A stretch of DNA of 20,000 nt from Reclinomonas americana ATCC 50394. Taxonomy: Eukaryota. Below are positions 5,123 through 16,363 of the stretch, piece after piece. The position numbers and the translations under genes are program-made. The stretch is taken from assembly GCA_048213135.1 (NCBI GenBank), contig PS015020.1, positions 508,173 to 528,172 on the forward strand, read 5' to 3'. Each line of letters starts with the position of its first letter. The stretch's first letter is position 1. The notes under the pieces are model-generated. The model searched no databases, was not told the origin of the DNA, and was given only the letters and a program-made list of their open reading frames with translations.

Positions 5123-6061
5123 GGTGGCGGTGGTGGAAGAAGTAGTTGGAAGAAGAAGAGCTGCGCGGTGGTGGGTGAGGGGTGGAATGGGGAGAGGGAG
5201 GGAGAGAAAGAGAGAATGGGAAGACAAGCAGTGAGCGTGTGATATAAATGGGTCACGCGTTTTTGACACACAGCTCTCACTATCTCTCTCTCTGACACGG
5301 AGGCTGTCTGGGCGGGTGTGTGTGTGTGTCGTCTGCGTGTGTGCGTGTGTGTGTAGTGGGCGCGGGGGGTGTTTCCGTCACACACACCTCAACCAAAAAT
5401 ATCGTAATCAGTCGAGTGGAGCGGAGTGTGGAATCGCAGAAGTCCATTGCGGTGCAGCTGACTCGCGTTCGAGTCCAGAAGCATCGTCTTCACTGCCTCC
5501 TACCCTTCTACGTGGCTGCTAGCCTCCGGAATTCGTATCCGGAAAATATCGAACAAAGCAAAGTCGACTGCGAATTCGAAGTTGCTTCCTCGTATAAGCC
5601 GTGTGCCAACAGGACTCAGAATTCCTAGTTTACTAAGCACCGCTCCTGCCTTCGGGAACTGGGTTGCGTCGAATGCAACGCTGGTGCCGATCCAAATTCG
5701 AATTCCCGAAATTGTTTTCGATCTCGGAACCGTAGCCGCGAGGAAAGCGTACATCGTCGCTGCCATCAGCACTGAGAGTCGTGCAGATGTTTGGCACCTG
5801 GACGCCCATTAACAGCCGCCGCGCGCTGCGTTGCCTCTTTGTTGGCCAATCATGATCAATTCGCTTGCATCCTTCGACGTCTCGAAACTTTGCACCAGCA
5901 TTCCCTCATGAGCACCGTAACACAGGAACGGATCAACCACACCCATCGACTCGACTTTCTTGGAGTTCTCCCTCTCTGCTGCAAAGTTGTCCACCAATTC
6001 CCGCAAAACCAATTTGCCGACACTTTCGTTGTGCATACGCATGCGTGCCTTCACCACGCAG

Positions 6062-7130
6062 CACCAACCACCACCACCACCACCTCCTCCTCTTCCTCTT
6101 CGCCACCATCGTCACCGTCTCTTGCGCCCTCGCACACACGGCGACAGCGAATTCGAATGAGTGCGCGGTGCTCAACTCCAAGGAGTCTCCTGTGAGCACA
6201 CACAATGTGCATCCGACGCTCGGCGACAACCTTACCATGATTGTGCGCCAGCGTCGCGTGACGCACTCCCTCTCTGGCATCACCGACACGCACGAAGCAG
6301 GCACGTACCAACGCAATGTCCGCTGTGCCAAATACCAATGCCATACAATCTCACTCTCACTCTCTCTCTCTCCCTCTCTCCCTCTCCCTCACCCAGTGCT
6401 GGCGTACGGGCGCCAGCACGGCCTGCAGCACGACTGCGCAGCGCTGGAGGAGATGCACGACGCGGCCGTGCGTGCGCTGCGAAAGCACACGCGCAATGCG
6501 GTGATGGCGCAGTATCCGAGGCTGGCGAGGCCACCAAAGGAGGCCTTCCGCACGCCGGACTACTCGGCATTCTCCAATTTTTACGACCGATTCCTGGAGG
6601 TGGTGCCGGTGGAGACCACGTGGCGCATGCTGGAGATTGGCACGCTGGAGGGACGCACGGCGTTCTACTTGCTGAACAACTCGCCGCCGACAACCACTCT
6701 CGACTGCATCGACGACGGCAACAGTCTCGACACCTTCAACCGCGTGCTCGCTCCCTTCCTGGAGCAGGGCCGAGTGAGCTTTCTGCGCGGCGCCAGCGTT
6801 CCGATCATGGCGCGCATGGTGGGTGCCCAGCCGCCTGTCGAGCCGTACGACTTCATCTATGTCGACGGCTGCCACACGGCGATTCGCACGCTGGAGGACC
6901 TGACGTTGGCCTTTCGGCTGCTGCGCGTCGGTGGCATCATGGCCATCGACGACTACCTGCTGAAATCCGACGAGCCGTGGGTGCCGGCCTTCCACAAGCC
7001 GACGCCGGCCGTCGACGCCTTCCTGCAGGTGTACACCGCCGAGGTGGTCGTGCTGCACAAGGCGTATCAGGTGTGGGTACGCAAGCTGGCGCCACCCGAC
7101 GGCCTGTGTGGCTGCCACGCGATTCAGTGA
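6062..7130 (+). CDS. Class I SAM-dependent methyltransferase (Methyltransf_24-like) with a hydrophobic signal/anchor segment; start codon unresolved
   Basis: Motif I is MLEIGTLEGRTAFYLL, followed by YDFIYVDGCH...EDLTLAFRLLRVGGIMAIDDY, typical of Methyltransf_24. The main exon is 6397-7130 (TGA). Likely in-frame introns are 6192-6251 (GTGAGC..CAG, 60 nt) and 6301-6396 (GCACGT..CAG, 96 nt). The upstream exon encodes LLLFLFATIVTVSCALAHTATA. No in-frame ATG precedes it, so a further 5' exon is probable (possible acceptor CAG at 6059-6061). Confidence 0.85.
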
Positions 7131-8378: not shown

Positions 8379-11300
8379 ATGACTCTCGCCAGTGACGATG
8401 GCGGTGTGGCGCTCCTCTTCATCGCCTCCACGGTGAGTCTCTCTCTCTTCTCTCTCTGTCTTCCCCTCCTCCTCCACCACACACACGCATTGTCAGAGAG
8501 AGAGAGAGGGAGTGGCTGTGTGTGCGTCAAGCAATACCATTTTCTTTCATCTTCCCCTGTTCCGTTGTGCCACCTGTGATGTGACACCTGCCACATCACG
8601 CGATACAGGCGCTGCTGGGCCCGCTCGGCTACCTGCTCATCGAGGCGTCGACTACCCGCGCCGGCATCCAAAACTCAGTCTTTCGCTGTTTCCTCGCCCT
8701 CGCCGTTGCCGGCCTCTGCTGGTGGCTCCTCGGTGCCGCCGTCGCCACTCCGTCCGCCGGCAATGGTGTACTGAGCGTGCGCACGGAGGCACTGGCCAGT
8801 GTGCCCACACAGAGCGCCATTGAGTGGATGTTTGGCTTGTCGCTTCTAACAGCCTGTGGTGCGTTTTTTTTTAAGCGTCCATGTCGCGCGGAGTTCAATA
8901 TCCGGTATTGACACCTTGTTCTCAGTCGCGACCATCAGTGGTGCGGTGGCCGAGCGCGCCAAGCTGAGCGCGTACGTGGCGCTGTGTGTGTTCGTGTCGG
9001 TGGTGGTGTTTCCGTTGGTGTCGTCGTGGACGTGGGCGGTTTCGGGCTTTCTTAGCGGGTACGTTGTTGAAAAACTCGCATTACCTTTTCGGGAAACGGT
9101 ATCTCCAGCTCTCCCTTCCTTTCTTTGTTGTCGTCGATGTCGAGGGCTGCGTGTGCAGAGGAGAGACACTCCCACACGCTCGTTTGTGTGAGTGTGCCTC
9201 CTGGCTCTTAATATCGCTTTTACAGTTCGTCGCGCACTCTTTTTGTCGTCTGTGTGCGTGTTCGTGTGCTCTCTTTGTATGTTCGCGCGTGGTGTGTGTC
9301 TGCGTGTCTGTGTGTCTTTGTGTCTTTGCGTGTGTCTGGTGAGTGCGCGTGGCTGCGTGTCTGGTCTCAAAAATGTGCTGTTTTCTGTTGTCTCACCACT
9401 GGTTTTTGACTTGCGTTTTCAGACTCTTTTCTCTCTCTCTCCTGCTCGCTCGCTCTCCGTCTTTCTCTCGTGCCCTGTGTCAACGCACTGTATGTGTTTG
9501 CGTCGCGATCGTCTGTTTTTTCTCAGCGGAGACATCGTGCGCATGCGCACGTTTCTTTTTTGGTTTTGTGTCGTCTCTCTTCTCTTTTCTTTCTCTTTCT
9601 CTTTCTCTCGCACATCCCCCTGCCTTGTCATCATGGGTGGATGTTTGCGCGTGCTGATCACCCGCATGGCATCTGCTATGCGCCTGACAACCAGATTCTT
9701 TTGTTTTCTCTTTCCTCTCGCTCGCCCCTATCGCACCCCACTCTCCTCCTCCACCTCCTCCTCCTCCTCCACCCTCCCTGCCTCGCCTTCTCTCCTCAAT
9801 CGTGTTCGGGAATCGCAAACCCTTCCATATATAGTGATGCATCTCCTTTTTCTTTTTGTGCAGTCGTGCCCCGGCCTCGTCTCGCCTGGTCGGCGGCATA
9901 TTCCTCGTGGACGCCGCCGGTGCCGGTGCAGTGCACCTCGTCAGCGGCATGGTCGCGCTGGTCGCCGCCAAACTCGTCGGTCAAAAGGCAGAAACCGCCT
10001 CCTCAGCAGCATCCAGCACCAGCCGGAACAGCGCTGTGCACAAAACCGCAACTGCCACCACCACCACCAAGACCGTATCGCCGTCCACCACCATTGCATC
10101 TCCGTCACCGGTTTCTGCCACGGTGACACCGGATCCGCATGCACCCGTACGCACCACGGCGGATTTCTGTGCCGCGCCCTCGGCCGCAGGCACCACACTC
10201 GGCCACGAGCTGGGCATGTCGCGACGCAATGTGCTGCGCAGTGGCGGGGAGATGCCGACCGCCGAGGATGTGGAGAGTGGCGGCTTCGGCGGCAGCAGTG
10301 GCGGCGATGAGCCGGATGTGGAGGATGACGACGAGGAGACGCTGGATCCGCATGTGGAGCTGCTGCGCGCGGCGTGGGTGAAGAACCAGTTTATTTTGCA
10401 GGCGTTTGGCACGTTGTTGGTGGTGCTGTCGTGTGTTGGACTGGCGGGTGCGTCGCCGTGGCTTCTCGTTGGTCACGGAGACATTTCCATGTCCATTAGT
10501 GGTGAGCTGGAAGAGGGGGGAGGAGGAGGAGCAGGGGGAAAGGAGAAGGGAGAGAAGGAGGAGAAGAGGGGAAGAAGGGGGATGAAGAGGAAGAGAGGAG
10601 GGGAAAGAGTAGCAGCAGCAGCAGCAGCAGCAGCGGCAGAAGAATAAGAAGAAGAGAAAAACAACAAGAAGATAACGGAGGAGAAGAATAACGATGAAGA
10701 GAAACAAGAACAAGAAGACAAGAAGAAAAGAGGAACAAGAAAAAGAAGAAGAGAGTAAGAAGAAGCAAAGATGACAGGGGGAGGAGAGAAGAGAGTCTTT
10801 GCTTTTTTCTTTTCTTTGTTGTTGCTGACCTCCGTCTTTCCCTCGTCCGCAGCCACCGCCGTTGTCAACACATTGCTGTGCTCGTTCGCGTCGGCGGCCG
10901 CCACGGTGACGCTCAGCCGCCTGATGCAGGGCCGCTACGACCTGCAGAGTCTACTAAACTCGGCAATCGCTGGCGCTGTGGCGGCGTCGTCTGGGTGTGC
11001 GGTGGTGGCCTCGTGGGGTGCCGTTCTTACGGGAATCGCCGCCGCCTTTTTGTACCGCATGGCCACGGCACTGTTGAGACGGTGGCGACCAGTGGACTCG
11101 ATCGAGGTGTGGCCTGTGCATGCTGCGTGCGGTGCTTGGGGTCTTCTCGCCACCGGCATCCTCGCCGACTCGGATCGCGTCACTCTTGGTGCGTTGTGGG
11201 TTTTCCAGTCGCTTTCTGTTATTATCATTGTCTTCTCACCCCCACCTCCTCACCAGTGTACGGCCCCGGCTCGTCGGCATCGGTGTTTGCGCGCATTGGC

Positions 11301-11450
11301 GTGCAGCTGCTGGGTCTGTCTGTCATCTCGCTGTGGACGCTCATCACCACCGCCGTGTTCCTGTGGGCCCTCCCGCTCATGTACACCGACAAGCGACTGC
11401 ACGAGCGGTCCGCGTCGGTGCATCTGTTTGGCGACGACACGGAGTTGGTG
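8379..11450 (+). other. Amt/Mep/Rh ammonium transporter domain (exons 1-6 of the fusion gene)
   Basis: Hydrophobic helices in the Amt order. Twin His codons are at 9934-9936 (GAVHLVSG) and 11119-11121 (PVHAACG), and the GAxAER motif is at about 8941-8958. Confidence 0.92.
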
Positions 11451-14400
11451 CGGGTGCTGGCCACCCCGCCGCAGATGCCCAACGAGCAGGCGCCGCGGGG
11501 ATTTGTTTGTGTGGCGTTTACGGATATTGTTGCGCAACGGGAAAGGGGTAAAAGGGGAGAAGGGGAGAAGGGGAGAAAGGGGAGAAAGGAGAGTCAAAGT
11601 TCAGAATGTGATGAGAAAGAACGGTGTCAGAGGAGAAGAGTAAGACAGAAGACGAGAGGGAGGATAGAGGGGCATGGGAACGGAGAGAAGGAGAAGGGAA
11701 AGAGGAGGAGGAAAAAGAGGAGACAGGGGAGGAAGGAGATCCAGAGCGCAGAACCTGGTGATTTGGAGACGGGAAGTCAGAGGAGAAGAAAGACAGAAGG
11801 CGAAAGGGAGGATAGAGGGGCATGGGGGAGGAGTGAAGGAGGAGAGAAAATGTGAAAGGAATTGGAGAGAAAGAGAGAGGGAAGGAAGGAGAGTCAGAGT
11901 GACAGCGGAGAAAGATATGGCGCGAAAGGAGAGAGACAGAAGATGAGAGGGAGGGAAAGGTGGAATAGACGGGAATGGGAGAAATATAGAGAAGGAGAAA
12001 GGAAAGAGGAGGAAGAAGAGGCAGAGTGGAGAGCGGAGAAGAAATGGCGGGGTTTTGAGAGCCCTCTGCGCTCTATTTTTATGTTGCTTTGAGTAGTAAT
12101 GGAAAGAAGGAGAAAGCAACGAGGAGAAGGAGGAAGAGCCAGAGTGCAACATGTCTCTCCAACCATCACTGATCATGTTCTTCACACTGCCTTCTTCTTC
12201 CTCCTCTTTCCCTTCTCCTTCTCCGTTTCTCCCGGGCACAGTCCTTTCTCGTCTTCTGTCTTTTGTCTTTCTCCTCTTTTTTCGCTCAATCCACTGCACT
12301 TCTTGTCGCGTAGAAGCCACGACTTCTTTGTCGTTCTCTTGTCTGTCTACGTTACCACCATCAAGAACTGATGTTTGTGCGATCCTCCTTGCCTTCCATT
12401 CTGTAGCAACTGTCATCATCGTCCTCTTAGTTTATCAGCCCTTCTGTTCTCCCACTCTCTTCTTTCTCTCACCTCATTTTCCCCCCACTCGCAGGAGGCA
12501 TCCACCGCACTGTGGGAGACCGATCCGAAAGTAATGGCGGCCTGCATCAAGGTGCACCACACGCTCCTCCGCCGCACCATTCGCGAGTTCAACGGCTTCG
12601 AGGTCAAGACCGAGGGCGATGCATTCATGGTGACGTTCAGCAGTCCGGTCGATGCACTGCGGTGGGCGCTGCACACGCAGGTGGACTTGCTGGAGGCCGC
12701 GTGGCCGCGTGCCGTCTTCAAGCTGCAGTATGCGCAGATTCAAGGTTTGGTTTTCTTTCCTCAACAGCGCCTGTGTATTGCCCGCCTGCTTACGCTGTTC
12801 CTCCGCCACAGAGTCTCCGCTCACTGGCATCCTGTATCGCGGTCCGCGAGTGCGCATGGGCATACACTACGGCATGGCGATGGACCACATTGACGAGACA
12901 GGTTCGTTGCATCTCATCGGTATTGCTTCCAAGCCCAGCTGCTCATCCGCGCGCGCCACAGTCAACCGGCTGGACTACTACGGACCGACCATCAATCGTG
13001 CCGCGCGAGTGGCCGGCACTGCCGACGGCGGCTTCATCAACGTGTCGGACGACTTGCTGCGACAGATCCCGCGCTTCTCCAACGGCCAGCTCGACCTCTC
13101 CCCAGATTTCGAGGAGGGAACCGTGGTCGTGAATCATCTGGGCGCTCTGCCGTTGAAGGGCGTCACGGAGCAGATTCACGTGTATCAGGTGCTGCCGTTT
13201 GCGCTGCAGGAGCGTCTGGGACCGGATGCGCACTGGAACATGATCACCTCGCCGCCCATTCAACCGCAGCAGTCGATGAACGATTTGAGTGGCGACGAGC
13301 TGCTCCTCAACGATTCACCGCGACCCAATCTGTTCTTGGACGACCTGCCGTCGCCCAAGGATCACCTCACGGTGAACAAGCTGCGCGCGGCTTCGGAGGT
13401 GAGCTATTCATCATACATCTCTCTCCGGATTGTTCAAGTCGTCTCACCTCGTATTCCCCCCACGCAGCACATCATGTCGCCCGCCACCATGCACACCGTC
13501 GTCAGCCTGACACACCACGAGCACGGGGCAGGCGTGGACTCGCAAGCCAGTGTCTCGCTGGATCCGCGCACCGTCTCCGCCTCGGTGCTGCTGTCGCGAC
13601 TGCCGTCACACCCGGCCACGCCGACCAACAGTCTCACCAATCGCTCCGTGCACTCGTCGCTGCACCGTTTCGTCGGACGACCGGGCATGGCGCAGAGTAT
13701 GATTGCCTCGCCGAGCTGCGCATCGCCGCGGGTGCAAACGTCTCTGCGCCGCCGCTGGCACAAGGCGCAGGAGCGACTGGCGCTGTACCGCGGTCTCGAC
13801 GCCAGTGCCAATCTGCCGTTTGCGGTCATGGCCAACGATCCCGAGGTCATGCACTCGCTGCAGCAGCAGGAGCGACTGGTGTCGGGCATGGCGAACGGGG
13901 GTGACACGATTGTGGTGGTGGACGGCGCGGGTGCGGGATCGGGTGGAGCTCACGGGGCGCCTCCGGCCATGGGTGGTGCTGGCGGCGGTGGTGGTGCCGG
14001 AATGGCAGCTGCCACTGGCAATGGTGGTGGTCAAGGCGGTGGCGCGGCTGGCGGTGGTGACGCGGCGCAAATGGCACGTGCGGCATTCCAGCGGCGCAGC
14101 GCCTCACGCGGCAGTCGCATGTCTTTAGGCAGCGGCCTGCTGCGCAGTCGGCTGCTGGCGGCGCACAATCGATCGCAGGCGTACGCTCTCAACGAGCTGC
14201 ACCATCATCACCACCAACAGCAGCAGCCGCAACACCATCATCACACCTCAAATCGCCACCTCCAGTCCTACTACCCCGTGCAACACGATCGCGACGCGGA
14301 GGCGTCCATGGACGACGACCAGGAGAATTCGGGCATCACCTCGCCAGTGCAACTGCCTGGCGTGGTGCGGCAGCGGAGGCGTGGATCGCAGTCGCACTTA

Positions 14401-14577
14401 AATAACGAGCGACTGCAACCACGATCGACCAACATGCCACTGGTTCCAGCCTCACCATCGATGCTGAGAAGCGGCGGTGGCATGGCTTCACCACCCCCAC
14501 CACAATCACAGCCACCACCCTCGCCGGGTTCGCACGAGCGGGAGGATGTGGAGAGCGGTCCCATGGAACGATGGTGA
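8379..14577 (+). CDS. Amt/Mep-family ammonium transporter domain fused to a class III adenylyl cyclase, with a long low-complexity C-terminal tail (about 1189 aa, 10 exons)
   Basis: Exons are 8379-8432, 8609-8858, 8926-9058, 9864-10501, 10853-11188, 11257-11528, 12495-12744, 12812-12901, 12962-13398 and 13468-14577. All introns are GT-AG with matching phases; the total is 3570 nt with no internal stop. Amt motifs: GYLLIEAS, ISGAVAERAKLSAY, FPLVSSWTW..GFL, VDAAGAGAVHLVSG, VVNTLL, LNSAIAGAVAASSGCAVV, WPVHAACGAWGLLATGI. Cyclase motifs: APRGFVCVAFTDI/EASTALWE, FEVKTEGDAFMVTF, GPRVRMGIHYG, LDYYGPTINRAARV, LPLKGV. The last Amt helix and the cyclase start lie in the same exon (exon 6). Confidence 0.93.
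11490..13200 (+). other. Class III nucleotidyl cyclase catalytic domain, adenylyl-specific signature (exons 6-9 of the fusion gene)
   Basis: Metal-binding Asp residues are in FTDI and EGDAF. The ATP-specifying Lys (VKT) and Asp (LDYYG) are present, as are the transition-state Asn/Arg (NRAAR). STALWE/KTEGDAFM matches the single-domain homodimeric cyclase type seen in fungi and various protists. Confidence 0.93.
11592..11970 (+). repeat. Degenerate purine-rich tandem duplication (about 148 nt period) within intron 6 of the Amt-cyclase gene
   Basis: The 21-mer GGGAGGATAGAGGGGCATGGG is exact at 11658 and 11806, each preceded by GTCAGAGGAGAAGA..AAGACAGAAG. A weaker third copy lies around 11890-11970. 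Confidence 0.65.
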
Positions 14578-14834: not shown

Positions 14835-16363
14835 TCAATGATGATCGTGGTGGTGGAACGAATCGTCCTTGATGCCTAGGAGGAATTTAGCGTACCTGGT
14901 GGCACGACAACAGTCCGTCAGTCAGTCAAGCGTGCCACCATGCCGATGGATGAAAGCGATTGCACGCGCGCGACGCAACTCGTACGTCATCCATGAAATG
15001 GCGGCGGACGGGGCAACATACAGAGCTCGTGCCGATGCACCCTGGAAGAAGCCGGAGACGCCGGCATTCCGGTACACGTACTTGGCGGCGTCCATGAAGC
15101 CTCGAAAGGTGACACCCAGCGAGCCTTGCGTCTGCAGGTAGGTCTTGATGACGTCCAGCGGGTTGGAGATCAGGGCGGCTGCGGCTCCAGCCGTGCCGCC
15201 GCTGACAAAGTGCTTCCAAAGCGCGGAGCCGTCACTGCGGGGAAGGAAAAAGGGGGAGAAGGGAAAGGGGGTGAGAGGGGGAAAAGGGGGGAGAAAGGGG
15301 AAGGGGGAAGGGGGAAAAGGGGAAGGGGGAAGTGAGGATGGAGAAGCGGAAGAAAATGATGATGAATGTGTAAATGATGAAGAGGAAGAGAGGCAGGAGA
15401 CTGACGGGCGAGGTTGGGCAAGAGAGGTAGAGAAGGAGAGAGAGAGAGAGAGTGAGAAACGTGCAGAAGGTAGAGCTGAAAGGAAAAGGATGCTGAGATT
15501 TGGTGTGGGACAAGGAACGGAGGCGAAAGAGAAACATGCGAAGGTGTGCAGGCGAGAAAGAGATACGATACAGAGAGTGAGACAGAGAGAAGTGACAACG
15601 ACAGACACGCAGAGGCTGAAAGTGAGGACAGAAGTTGTTGAATTTGGAAGTGAGGAGCAAGAAGAGAGACACAGGTGAAGTCGTGCAGGAGAGAGAAAGA
15701 GACGCCAACACAGAGAGACAGAATGCGAAAGCGAGAGACATGACAAGGTTGAGATTGGGGAAGAGAGAGAGAGAGAGGAGGGAGGACAGAGAGAGAAGAG
15801 AGAGAGAGAGAAGCAAGAAAGAAAGCGTGAGAGGAAGAGAGAAAGGAGACGGGGGAGAGTTTCTCTTTCCCAACAAAACGCAACGCCATATCGTCGGGTT
15901 GTCGGAGTACTCGTTTCGCGCTCTCGTACACGGCAAAGTGCACGGCGCTGTACGGAATGTTCATGGCGAGGGTGGTGGGGTACGAGACAAAGAAGGCACG
16001 CATGCCTTCTGCGGCATACACGTGTCGCACACAGGAGAGCACACTTCTGTGCTGACTCTGGAACAGTTGCATGCGTTGCTTGATTACGTCGGTCGGGGTG
16101 ACGACGGCGTCGTGGGCGGCCACCGCCACGGCACCGGCCAGGCCGGCGGCGATCGGATGGTGGCCGGGCTGATCGGCACCGAACCATTTCTTGGCTTGCT
16201 CGTAGGCGGCAAAGGAGAGGGCGTGGGAGGGGATGGCGCCGCCGGCGGCCACACTCACGCCGCGCCACAGGCGCATGATGCCCTCGGTGCGGAGGACGGT
16301 CTGCGAGAGGATAAGGGGAATGAGGAGAAGGGATTGAGGAGAAGGGTTAGGAGAAAGGGGAGA

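Follow-up and report, generated by a model that had tools for sequence, protein, structure and literature searches.

A predicted gene of Reclinomonas americana joining a diverged Amt domain to a trypanosome-type adenylate cyclase

Fusion of an Amt domain to a signalling output is already a known kind of architecture and, on the account given in PMC11152129, the Amt receptors understood in mechanistic detail are two bacterial proteins that have a canonical pore and sense through the N1/N2 site. Here, we describe a predicted eukaryotic gene in which a strongly diverged Amt domain precedes a class III adenylate cyclase of trypanosome type. It lies in a stretch of 20,000 nucleotides of Reclinomonas americana ATCC 50394 (assembly GCA_048213135.1, contig PS015020.1, positions 508,173 to 528,172, forward strand), the whole of which is called the window below. 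Judged from its sequence, nutrient transport is a less likely role for the product than that of a receptor or an anchor in the membrane. The reading that we favour, and to which we give an even chance of being right, is that of a receptor-type adenylate cyclase whose diverged Amt module would have a regulatory or ligand-binding function instead of nutrient transport, and would use a site other than N1/N2.

Sd-Amt1 of Shewanella denitrificans (PDB 8qj3, 8qj4, 8qpf; PMC11152129) carries a GGDEF diguanylate cyclase attached through a HAMP domain. Ks-Amt5 of 'Candidatus Kuenenia stuttgartiensis' (PDB 6eu6; PMC5764959) is an Amt protein repurposed as a receptor, and its fused C-terminal output is a histidine kinase. 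According to these sources, both proteins keep the Trp/Ser pair, the Phe gate (F98/F221 in Sd-Amt1) and the His pair (PMC11152129, PMC5764959), and two ammonium ions are led to the N1/N2 pocket, which lies laterally beneath the His pair (PMC11152129). In Ks-Amt5, ammonium is described as bound at N1/N2, bulkier residues of transmembrane helix (TM) 1 closing the pore (PMC5764959). The signature QX6EX15NX2D[F/T]X54-60TX2[S/T] has been proposed for this site; fused Amts are also reported outside the N1/N2 cluster, where they may use other activation sites, and the authors expect further Amt receptors that differ in this respect (PMC11152129).

Compared with these systems, the window protein resembles Sd-Amt1 in its C-terminal transducer of the nucleotide-cyclase type, which needs dimerisation, and in having kept the Trp/Ser pair and the His pair. 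It differs from this bacterial protein in that its cyclase belongs to class III and that neither the Phe gate nor the N1/N2 site is left. With Ks-Amt5 it shares the fused C-terminal transducer and, on the favoured reading, the repurposing of an Amt as a receptor, whereas all canonical motifs are kept in Ks-Amt5. Two defining features of Amt receptors, the N1/N2 site and the canonical pore motifs, are thus missing from the window protein, whose predicted architecture, with a fused transducer that requires dimers, matches theirs.

Amt pore and cyclase of the predicted protein

The gene was delineated by reading the DNA and by boundary checks (by coordinate and by splice enumeration) as eight exons on the + strand, 8379-14577, encoding 1232 amino acids: one Amt domain, the cyclase and a low-complexity tail, in that order. 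Pfam PF00909 (Ammonium_transp, the Amt/Mep/Rh family) matches exon 5 with 85.4 bits and exon 3 with 30.2 bits (cut-off 23.2); on exon 4, the score of 22.2 bits is slightly below the cut-off and covers only amino acids 13-51 of that exon. Among solved structures, the top matches of exon 5 are 8qj3 and 8qpf (E=1.9e-06 for Sd-Amt1), followed by AmtB chains. Exon 4 alone gives merely a weak match to 6eu6 (Ks-Amt5) in the TM5 region, and exon 2 alone retrieves no Amt chain from the solved structures, its top matches being chance-level ones to presenilin. For residue assignment, a profile hidden Markov model (HMM) was built from 32 sequences, namely Escherichia coli K-12 AmtB (L001:1967-3253) and 31 matches of 380-530 amino acids. 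Positions 29-200 and 208-401 of this seed HMM match amino acids 24-195 and 320-511 of the window protein, TM1 to TM11 are alignable, and the hydropathy segments agree with the 11-helix Amt architecture. The membrane part is accordingly described here as a predicted single, strongly diverged 11-helix domain of the Amt fold, which differs from AmtB in its pore residues, in an insert of about 125 amino acids in loop 5 and in the fused cyclase.

With residues numbered as in mature AmtB and the window residue in brackets, the positions kept are F103 (F93) and W148 (W138) in exons 2 and 3, D160 (D162), A162 (A164), G163 (G165) and H168 (H170) in TM5, G214 (G338) and S219 (S343) in TM6, and D310 (D440) and H318 (H448) in the later helices. 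Changed are Q104 (G94) and F107 (L97) in exon 2, F161 (A163) in TM5, a series of TM6 positions comprising W212 (C336), F213 (V337), F215 (L339), N216 (A340), A217 (G341) and G218 (A342), and finally T273 (Ser) and D309 (V439). HMMER gives posterior-probability symbols 8, 9 or * at all of these columns. The outer recruitment site therefore keeps W138, S343 and D162 (with A164), its third S1 residue, F107, being Leu; the twin-His pair is kept as H170 and H448; and the Phe gate is lost, with L97 and L339 in its place. Members of the nearest clade have L, I or V at 103 and Y at 107, against F and L in the window protein, whose aromatic sits one helical turn higher. A shifted TM6 register, in which the Trp two residues past S343 falls on W212, was also considered; F215 and N216 are still lost in it, and the posterior probabilities favour the register reported here.

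The original prediction, a manual alignment of the translated window to AmtB motifs, fares well at this level. Its readings of FGLSL at 8831-8845 and of GTLLVVLSCVGLAGAS at 10408-10455 are exact translations, and the profile alignment bears out the change of DFAG to DAAG and of DDP to VDS, the substitutions F107L, W212C, F215L and N216A, with no Phe or Trp placed at these positions, and the retention of W148, D160, S219 and both pore His. The range assigned to the remodelled pore, 8825-11121, spans three introns and only part of the Amt domain, which starts in exon 1 at 8379 and reaches about 11400 in exon 6. In the other rows of the alignment, the AmtB residue stands at 212 in 94% (W), at 215 in 96% (F), at 216 in 97% (N) and at 309 in 100% (D), percentages that, like the consensus used below, leave out seven degenerate rows (the first domains of P0017, P0048, P0130 and P0014, both domains of P0005, and P0126). 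The pore changes are real departures from the Amt family.

Without a change of frame, the Amt domain leads on past TM11 into the class III cyclase. Pfam PF00211 (Guanylate_cyc) matches the frame of exon 7 with 28.1 bits (cut-off 21.9) and part of exon 8 with 17.3 bits. The closest solved relatives are two receptor-type adenylate cyclases of Trypanosoma brucei, GRESAG 4.3 (PDB 1fx4, E=1.4e-11) and GRESAG 4.1 (PDB 1fx2, E=8.6e-11), to both of which the second half of the domain, in exon 8, also aligns. The motifs FTDI, KTEGDAF, RVRMGIHYG and LDYYGPTINRAAR are present and presumably hold, at the class III positions, the two metal-binding Asp, the Lys and Asp that specify adenine, and the Asn and Arg of the transition state. 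KTEGDAF and LDYYGPTINRAAR align with the same motifs of the GRESAG 4.x proteins, FTDI standing in exon 6 directly before the aligned stretch. EVKT.GD.FM, RVR.GIH and DYYG.T.N.AAR are common to the window cyclase and GRESAG 4.1/4.3, which have ESST opposite its EAST. To judge by these motifs, the domain seems to be an adenylate cyclase that forms homodimers and is competent for catalysis. The trypanosome receptor cyclases differ in their membrane part, which is a single transmembrane helix with a large extracellular domain, not an 11-helix Amt. The C-terminal tail of about 450 amino acids (13200-14577) has no Pfam match and is of low complexity; Gly, Ala, His and Gln abound in it, and runs of Gly/Ala occur as well as one of His/Gln.

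Relatives of the fusion protein

An exhaustive HMMER search with exon 5 returned 2393 proteins at E <= 0.001 and 191 at E <= 1e-10. The top matches are long proteins with 31-38% identity, fragments reach at most 44%, and identity to the long relatives over the whole domain is at most 32%. A word-indexed search with exon 5 among longer proteins gave one match (36% identity), and 12 loci with identities of 29-39% were found by scanning metagenomes. Two Amt domains were recognised by HMM in 15 long relatives, including P0002, P0004, P0008, P0009 and P0014; these tandem-Amt proteins are 1058-2804 amino acids long and have two complete Amt domains, and two 11-helix domains per chain require an additional membrane crossing between them. 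Pfam scans covered 11 long relatives (P0006, P0016, P0020, P0044 and P0069 were left out), six of which combine Amt with Guanylate_cyc (P0002, P0004, P0014, P0048, P0130 and P0126) and two with Pkinase (P0008 and P0009), the remaining three (P0003, P0005 and P0017) having Amt only. An exact-sequence look-up of 10 relatives identified five as transcripts from Artemidia motanka and Namystynia karyoxenos, both diplonemids, and one bears the label 'Hpha', which we take to be Hemistasia. Those of the nearest relatives that have names come from diplonemids and combine two Amt domains with a cyclase or a kinase.

As in the window protein, Amt is followed by a class III cyclase in six of the 11 relatives scanned, and several Amt domains of these relatives have lost the Phe gate too. 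Most of them, however, have two Amt domains of which the cyclase-adjacent one is canonical, whereas in the window protein the sole, cyclase-adjacent Amt is the diverged one; tblastn with P0002, P0004, P0008 and P0126 found a single Amt region in the window and no second one. The domain order of the window protein recurs in P0126 (1206 amino acids), in which one degenerate Amt leads directly into the cyclase; the two proteins are collinear through the second Amt half and the cyclase (27% identity, E=8e-41). A free quick tree placed the window domain without resolution. A tree holding it with the 30 domains of tandem proteins had a log-likelihood 28.2 higher, and the AU test (p-AU 0.918) does not reject this placement; membership of the window domain in the tandem-Amt clade may be mildly favoured, long-branch effects being possible.

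Loss of the Phe gate recurs in this set. Among the 77 rows with both gate columns filled, seven are without an aromatic at either, and five of these seven are in proteins of at least 1058 amino acids, in a sample that is biased since its rows are the top matches to exon 5 itself. Gate loss is not confined to fusion proteins, because P0082 (383 amino acids) and P0127 (482 amino acids), both of stand-alone size, have no aromatic at either gate position. The joint loss of F107, W212, F215 and N216 is found in no long fusion relative and, within the set, only in P0082, where residue 212 is V and residue 216 is D. In P0017, P0048 and P0130, the N-terminal Amt is far more decayed (130-163 bits) than the cyclase-adjacent domain (415-436 bits), and one or both His of its pair are lost, the residues being F/Q in P0017, F/H in P0048 and N/R in P0130. 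A literature search for Amt-cyclase fusions or tandem-Amt proteins in diplonemids or other eukaryotes found none, although the domain lists in Fig. 7B and the supplements of PMC11152129 may include some.

Exon layout and flanking sequence

The window is eukaryotic, and its long open reading frames fall into pieces that lie in different frames. We considered whether the gene could be decaying or mis-modelled, the Amt part being a pseudogene remnant or the exons belonging to separate transcripts. The high divergence of the domain and the failure of the searches to find an ortholog would fit such a case, which we nevertheless regard as very unlikely. All seven introns have canonical GT-AG borders, and the joined frame is open through 1232 codons, exon 1 running stop-free into exon 2. 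The tblastn matches with relatives stop at or near the exon borders (8627-8860 is covered at exon 2), the profile alignment crosses the exon junctions unbroken, and the relatives align continuously there. At the junction of exons 6 and 7, FTDI|EAST completes the opening cyclase motif, as the exon 7 half aligns to the GRESAG chains from its first residue, EASTALW standing opposite ESSTALW in GRESAG 4.3; the catalytic residues of the cyclase are, moreover, intact.

The loop-5 insert is Ser/Thr/Ala-rich and then acidic; the TM5-TM6 loop of Sd-Amt1 has about 21 residues according to PMC11152129. The insert may be a loop with a regulatory role or an intron that went unrecognised, and part of it might be spliced out, no pore residue being touched either way. 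Three long introns are of low complexity and strongly strand-asymmetric. Upstream, the neighbouring gene lies on the same strand and stops about 1250 bases short of the Amt-cyclase start codon, which leaves no second Amt domain upstream; the downstream neighbour is convergent with the Amt-cyclase gene, about 350 bases separating the two stop codons. Coordinates are collected in Table 1.

Table 1. Coordinates of the predicted gene, its motifs and its surroundings (positions in the window)
Feature	Position	Strand	Content
Upstream neighbour	5856-7129	+	Methyltransf_24 domain, E=4e-11
Exon 1	8379..8432	+	amino acids 1-18; ATG at 8379, onset of Amt TM1; GT donor after 8432
Exon 2	8609..8858	+	amino acids 19-101; TM1-TM3; AG/GT boundaries
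Codon of E30 (exon 2)	8642-8644	+	within LIEAS 8636-8650; kept Glu of the otherwise lost N1/N2 signature
FGLSL (exon 2)	8831-8845	+	F93, G94 and L97 (AmtB F103, Q104 and F107)
Exon 3	8926..9058	+	amino acids 102-145; TM3-TM4; AER motif
W138 (exon 3)	within 9021-9041	+	W148 equivalent
Long intron	9059-9863	+	+ strand rich in pyrimidines (AT skew -0.53 for 9001-10000)
Exon 4	9864..10501	+	amino acids 146-358; TM5, loop insert, TM6
VDAAGAGAVH (exon 4)	9907-9936	+	TM5; D162 and H170
Insert (exon 4)	10012-10383	+	about 125 amino acids, low-complexity; cytoplasmic loop 5, open frame
Remodelled motif (exon 4)	10408-10455	+	TM6; C336, L339, A340, S343
Long intron	10502-10852	+	purine-rich GA/GGA-type repeats
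Exon 5	10853..11188	+	amino acids 359-470; TM7-TM10
RPVDS (exon 5)	11086-11100	+	V439/D440
H448 (exon 5)	within 11110-11142	+	second pore His
Exon 6	11257..11528	+	amino acids 471-561; TM11, linker of about 40 amino acids, cyclase start with first metal-binding Asp (FTDI)
Long intron	11529-12494	+	purine-rich GA/GGA-type repeats
Exon 7	12495..12744	+	amino acids 562-644; cyclase core
KTEGDAF (exon 7)	12606-12626	+	substrate Lys and second metal Asp
Exon 8	12812..14577	+	amino acids 645-1232 plus stop; remaining cyclase domain, then tail
RVRMGIHYG (exon 8)	12847-12873	+	cyclase motif
LDYYGPTINRAAR (exon 8)	12970-13008	+	cyclase motif
Downstream neighbour	14922-15260	-	ends with mitochondrial carrier repeat (Mito_carr, E=1.2e-22)

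Receptor, transporter or anchor

The original prediction proposed that the remodelled Amt domain works as a sensor rather than as a transporter. What speaks for a receptor-type cyclase is the fusion itself, with an intact catalytic motif set and residue assignments of high posterior probability, together with the signalling domains of the relatives and the collinearity of P0126. To this are added the recurrence of gate loss, the inactivity of F215 and double-gate mutants, and the precedent of Amt modules that act as receptors driving fused dimeric transducers. Several observations weigh against this reading. First, loss of the Phe gate is not a known mark of a sensor, since both characterised Amt receptors keep it. 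Second, at the positions of the N1/N2 signature, the window protein has P, E, C, A, L, A and S, so that two of seven are kept (the Glu and the final Ser), the Q position lying just beyond the local HMM alignment and having been read by eye from an ungapped stretch. Third, the linker of about 40 residues contains several Pro and no recognisable HAMP-like element, Pfam reporting only the cyclase there. Fourth, the word-indexed, exhaustive HMMER and metagenome searches found no orthologue above about 40% identity that would show the new pore residues to be conserved. The behaviour of transport mutants and the general divergence of the domain, set out next, weigh on the same side, and the sensor proposal therefore stands in part: the cyclase fusion and the Phe-gate mutants favour it, while the intact gate of the known receptors, the lost N1/N2 signature and the general divergence do not.

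Mutants of the gate bear most directly on transport. In AmtB, replacement of F215 by A, H, E, S or W is reported to abolish transport, and F107A to leave it unaffected (PMC10433425). Work on Arabidopsis AMT1;2 is reported to have found no activity for ammonium when both gate Phe were mutated, wild-type uptake in the single mutants, with signs of ion slippage in the inner-Phe mutant, and transport of methylammonium but not of ammonium in a triple mutant in which the vestibule Trp was changed too (PMC6856177). Transport by the window protein is conceivable on these data, because single gate mutants and F107A still transport and Leu is not Ala. The protein would then be a transceptor, whose remodelled pore conducts ammonium, or is channel-like or of altered selectivity (e.g., for methylammonium), with flux or occupancy coupled to the cyclase. 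The retention of the twin His and of the equivalents of W148, S219, D160 and A162 agrees with such a role, a hydrophobic Leu could still gate, and some N1/N2-bearing Amts are presented in PMC11152129 as transporters and proposed receptors alike. We nonetheless consider it unlikely: both gate positions are changed, as in the inactive double mutant, one of them being the position at which all five AmtB substitutions are inactive, and W212, N216, T273 and D309 are changed too, amid a wide loss of conserved columns. The suggestion in the original prediction of a different small amine or cation as ligand would have only the analogy of the AtAMT1;2 triple mutant behind it.

Divergence was assessed over the 63 columns in which conservation reaches at least 85% when the window protein is left out of the computation. 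In 34 of 63 the window protein agrees with the consensus (24 differ and 5 are gaps), compared with 59-62 of 62-63 in typical relatives, 42/61 in E. coli AmtB, 48/62 in P0126, and 24-28 of 59-62 in the decayed first domains of P0017, P0048 and P0130. With 29 of 63 conserved columns changed or missing, divergence is global. In a tree of 69 rows, restricted to domains covering at least 380 profile positions and with the loop insert of the window excluded, the end branch of the window domain is 2.75 against a median of 0.83 (about 3.3-fold), and its amino-acid make-up is atypical. The pore remodelling is one aspect of an acceleration that affects the domain in general. At a retention rate of 54%, the probability of keeping all five of W148, D160, H168, S219 and H318 is about 0.046 and that of jointly losing W212, F215 and N216 about 0.10; consequently, the pattern of a lost gate and a kept His pair is suggestive and statistically not strong. 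Losses affect 5/6 conserved columns of the TM1/TM2 block, which contains most N1/N2 signature positions (p=0.09 alone), and 6/8 of the TM6 block (p=0.13 alone), with a joint Fisher p=0.007 for blocks that were picked after seeing the data.

Given this general acceleration, a mere membrane anchor fits equally well. The Amt fold would then be an inert scaffold, an anchor or oligomerisation platform for the cyclase that binds no ligand, and the kept residues would be leftovers. The very long branch, the odd composition, the low consensus match and the loss of the N1/N2 site agree with this, as does the finding that the conserved C-terminal R..E..G.D columns of Amt are lost or unaligned; the first domains of P0017, P0048 and P0130, decayed further and hit in the His pair, indicate that such domains can degenerate. 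We doubt this explanation, however, as all five residues of the recruitment site and His pair are kept along with many non-glycine conserved positions in TM3-5 and TM8-11, and the losses are concentrated in TM1/2 and TM6 instead of being evenly spread, with the post hoc choice of blocks noted above.

In the favoured receptor reading, the Amt module would no longer serve bulk nitrogen uptake and would have a ligand-binding or regulatory role. The kept vestibule and the region of the His pair would take up ammonium, or an amine of slightly larger size, and this occupancy would shift TM11 and the linker, thereby altering the pairing of the cytoplasmic cyclases into active dimers and setting the output of cyclic AMP (cAMP). 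A trimeric Amt scaffold would be combined with a dimeric cyclase, an arrangement that has been proposed for Sd-Amt1, and sensing would proceed through a site other than the bacterial N1/N2 pocket. A bolder version, which we hold to be improbable, is that the protein represents a second, mechanistically distinct eukaryotic type of Amt-based receptor with a Leu/Leu gate, reporting a non-ammonium amine or ionic ammonium directly as cAMP. The S2 cavity would be widened by the exchange of Trp for Cys and Asn for Ala with the vestibule and His pair intact, so that a methylamine-like amine could be bound or passed, or ammonium passed in ionic form. Such a receptor would be part of a wider euglenozoan family of Amt-cyclase and Amt-kinase receptors, none of which was found described in the literature search.

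Three features of this gene appear new: it is eukaryotic, its cyclase is of trypanosome type, and the Phe gate has been lost together with the N1/N2 site. Set beside the two bacterial receptors, it is a eukaryotic candidate for an Amt receptor with a different activation site and a direct cAMP output, and it points to a set of protist proteins in which one or two Amt domains are joined to a cyclase or a kinase. If ligand sensing is genuine, the fusion would offer a simple assay, with ligand in and cAMP out, that could separate binding from conduction residues in the Amt fold. If the Amt domain is only an anchor, the gene would document the decay of a transporter fold after its takeover by a signalling domain.

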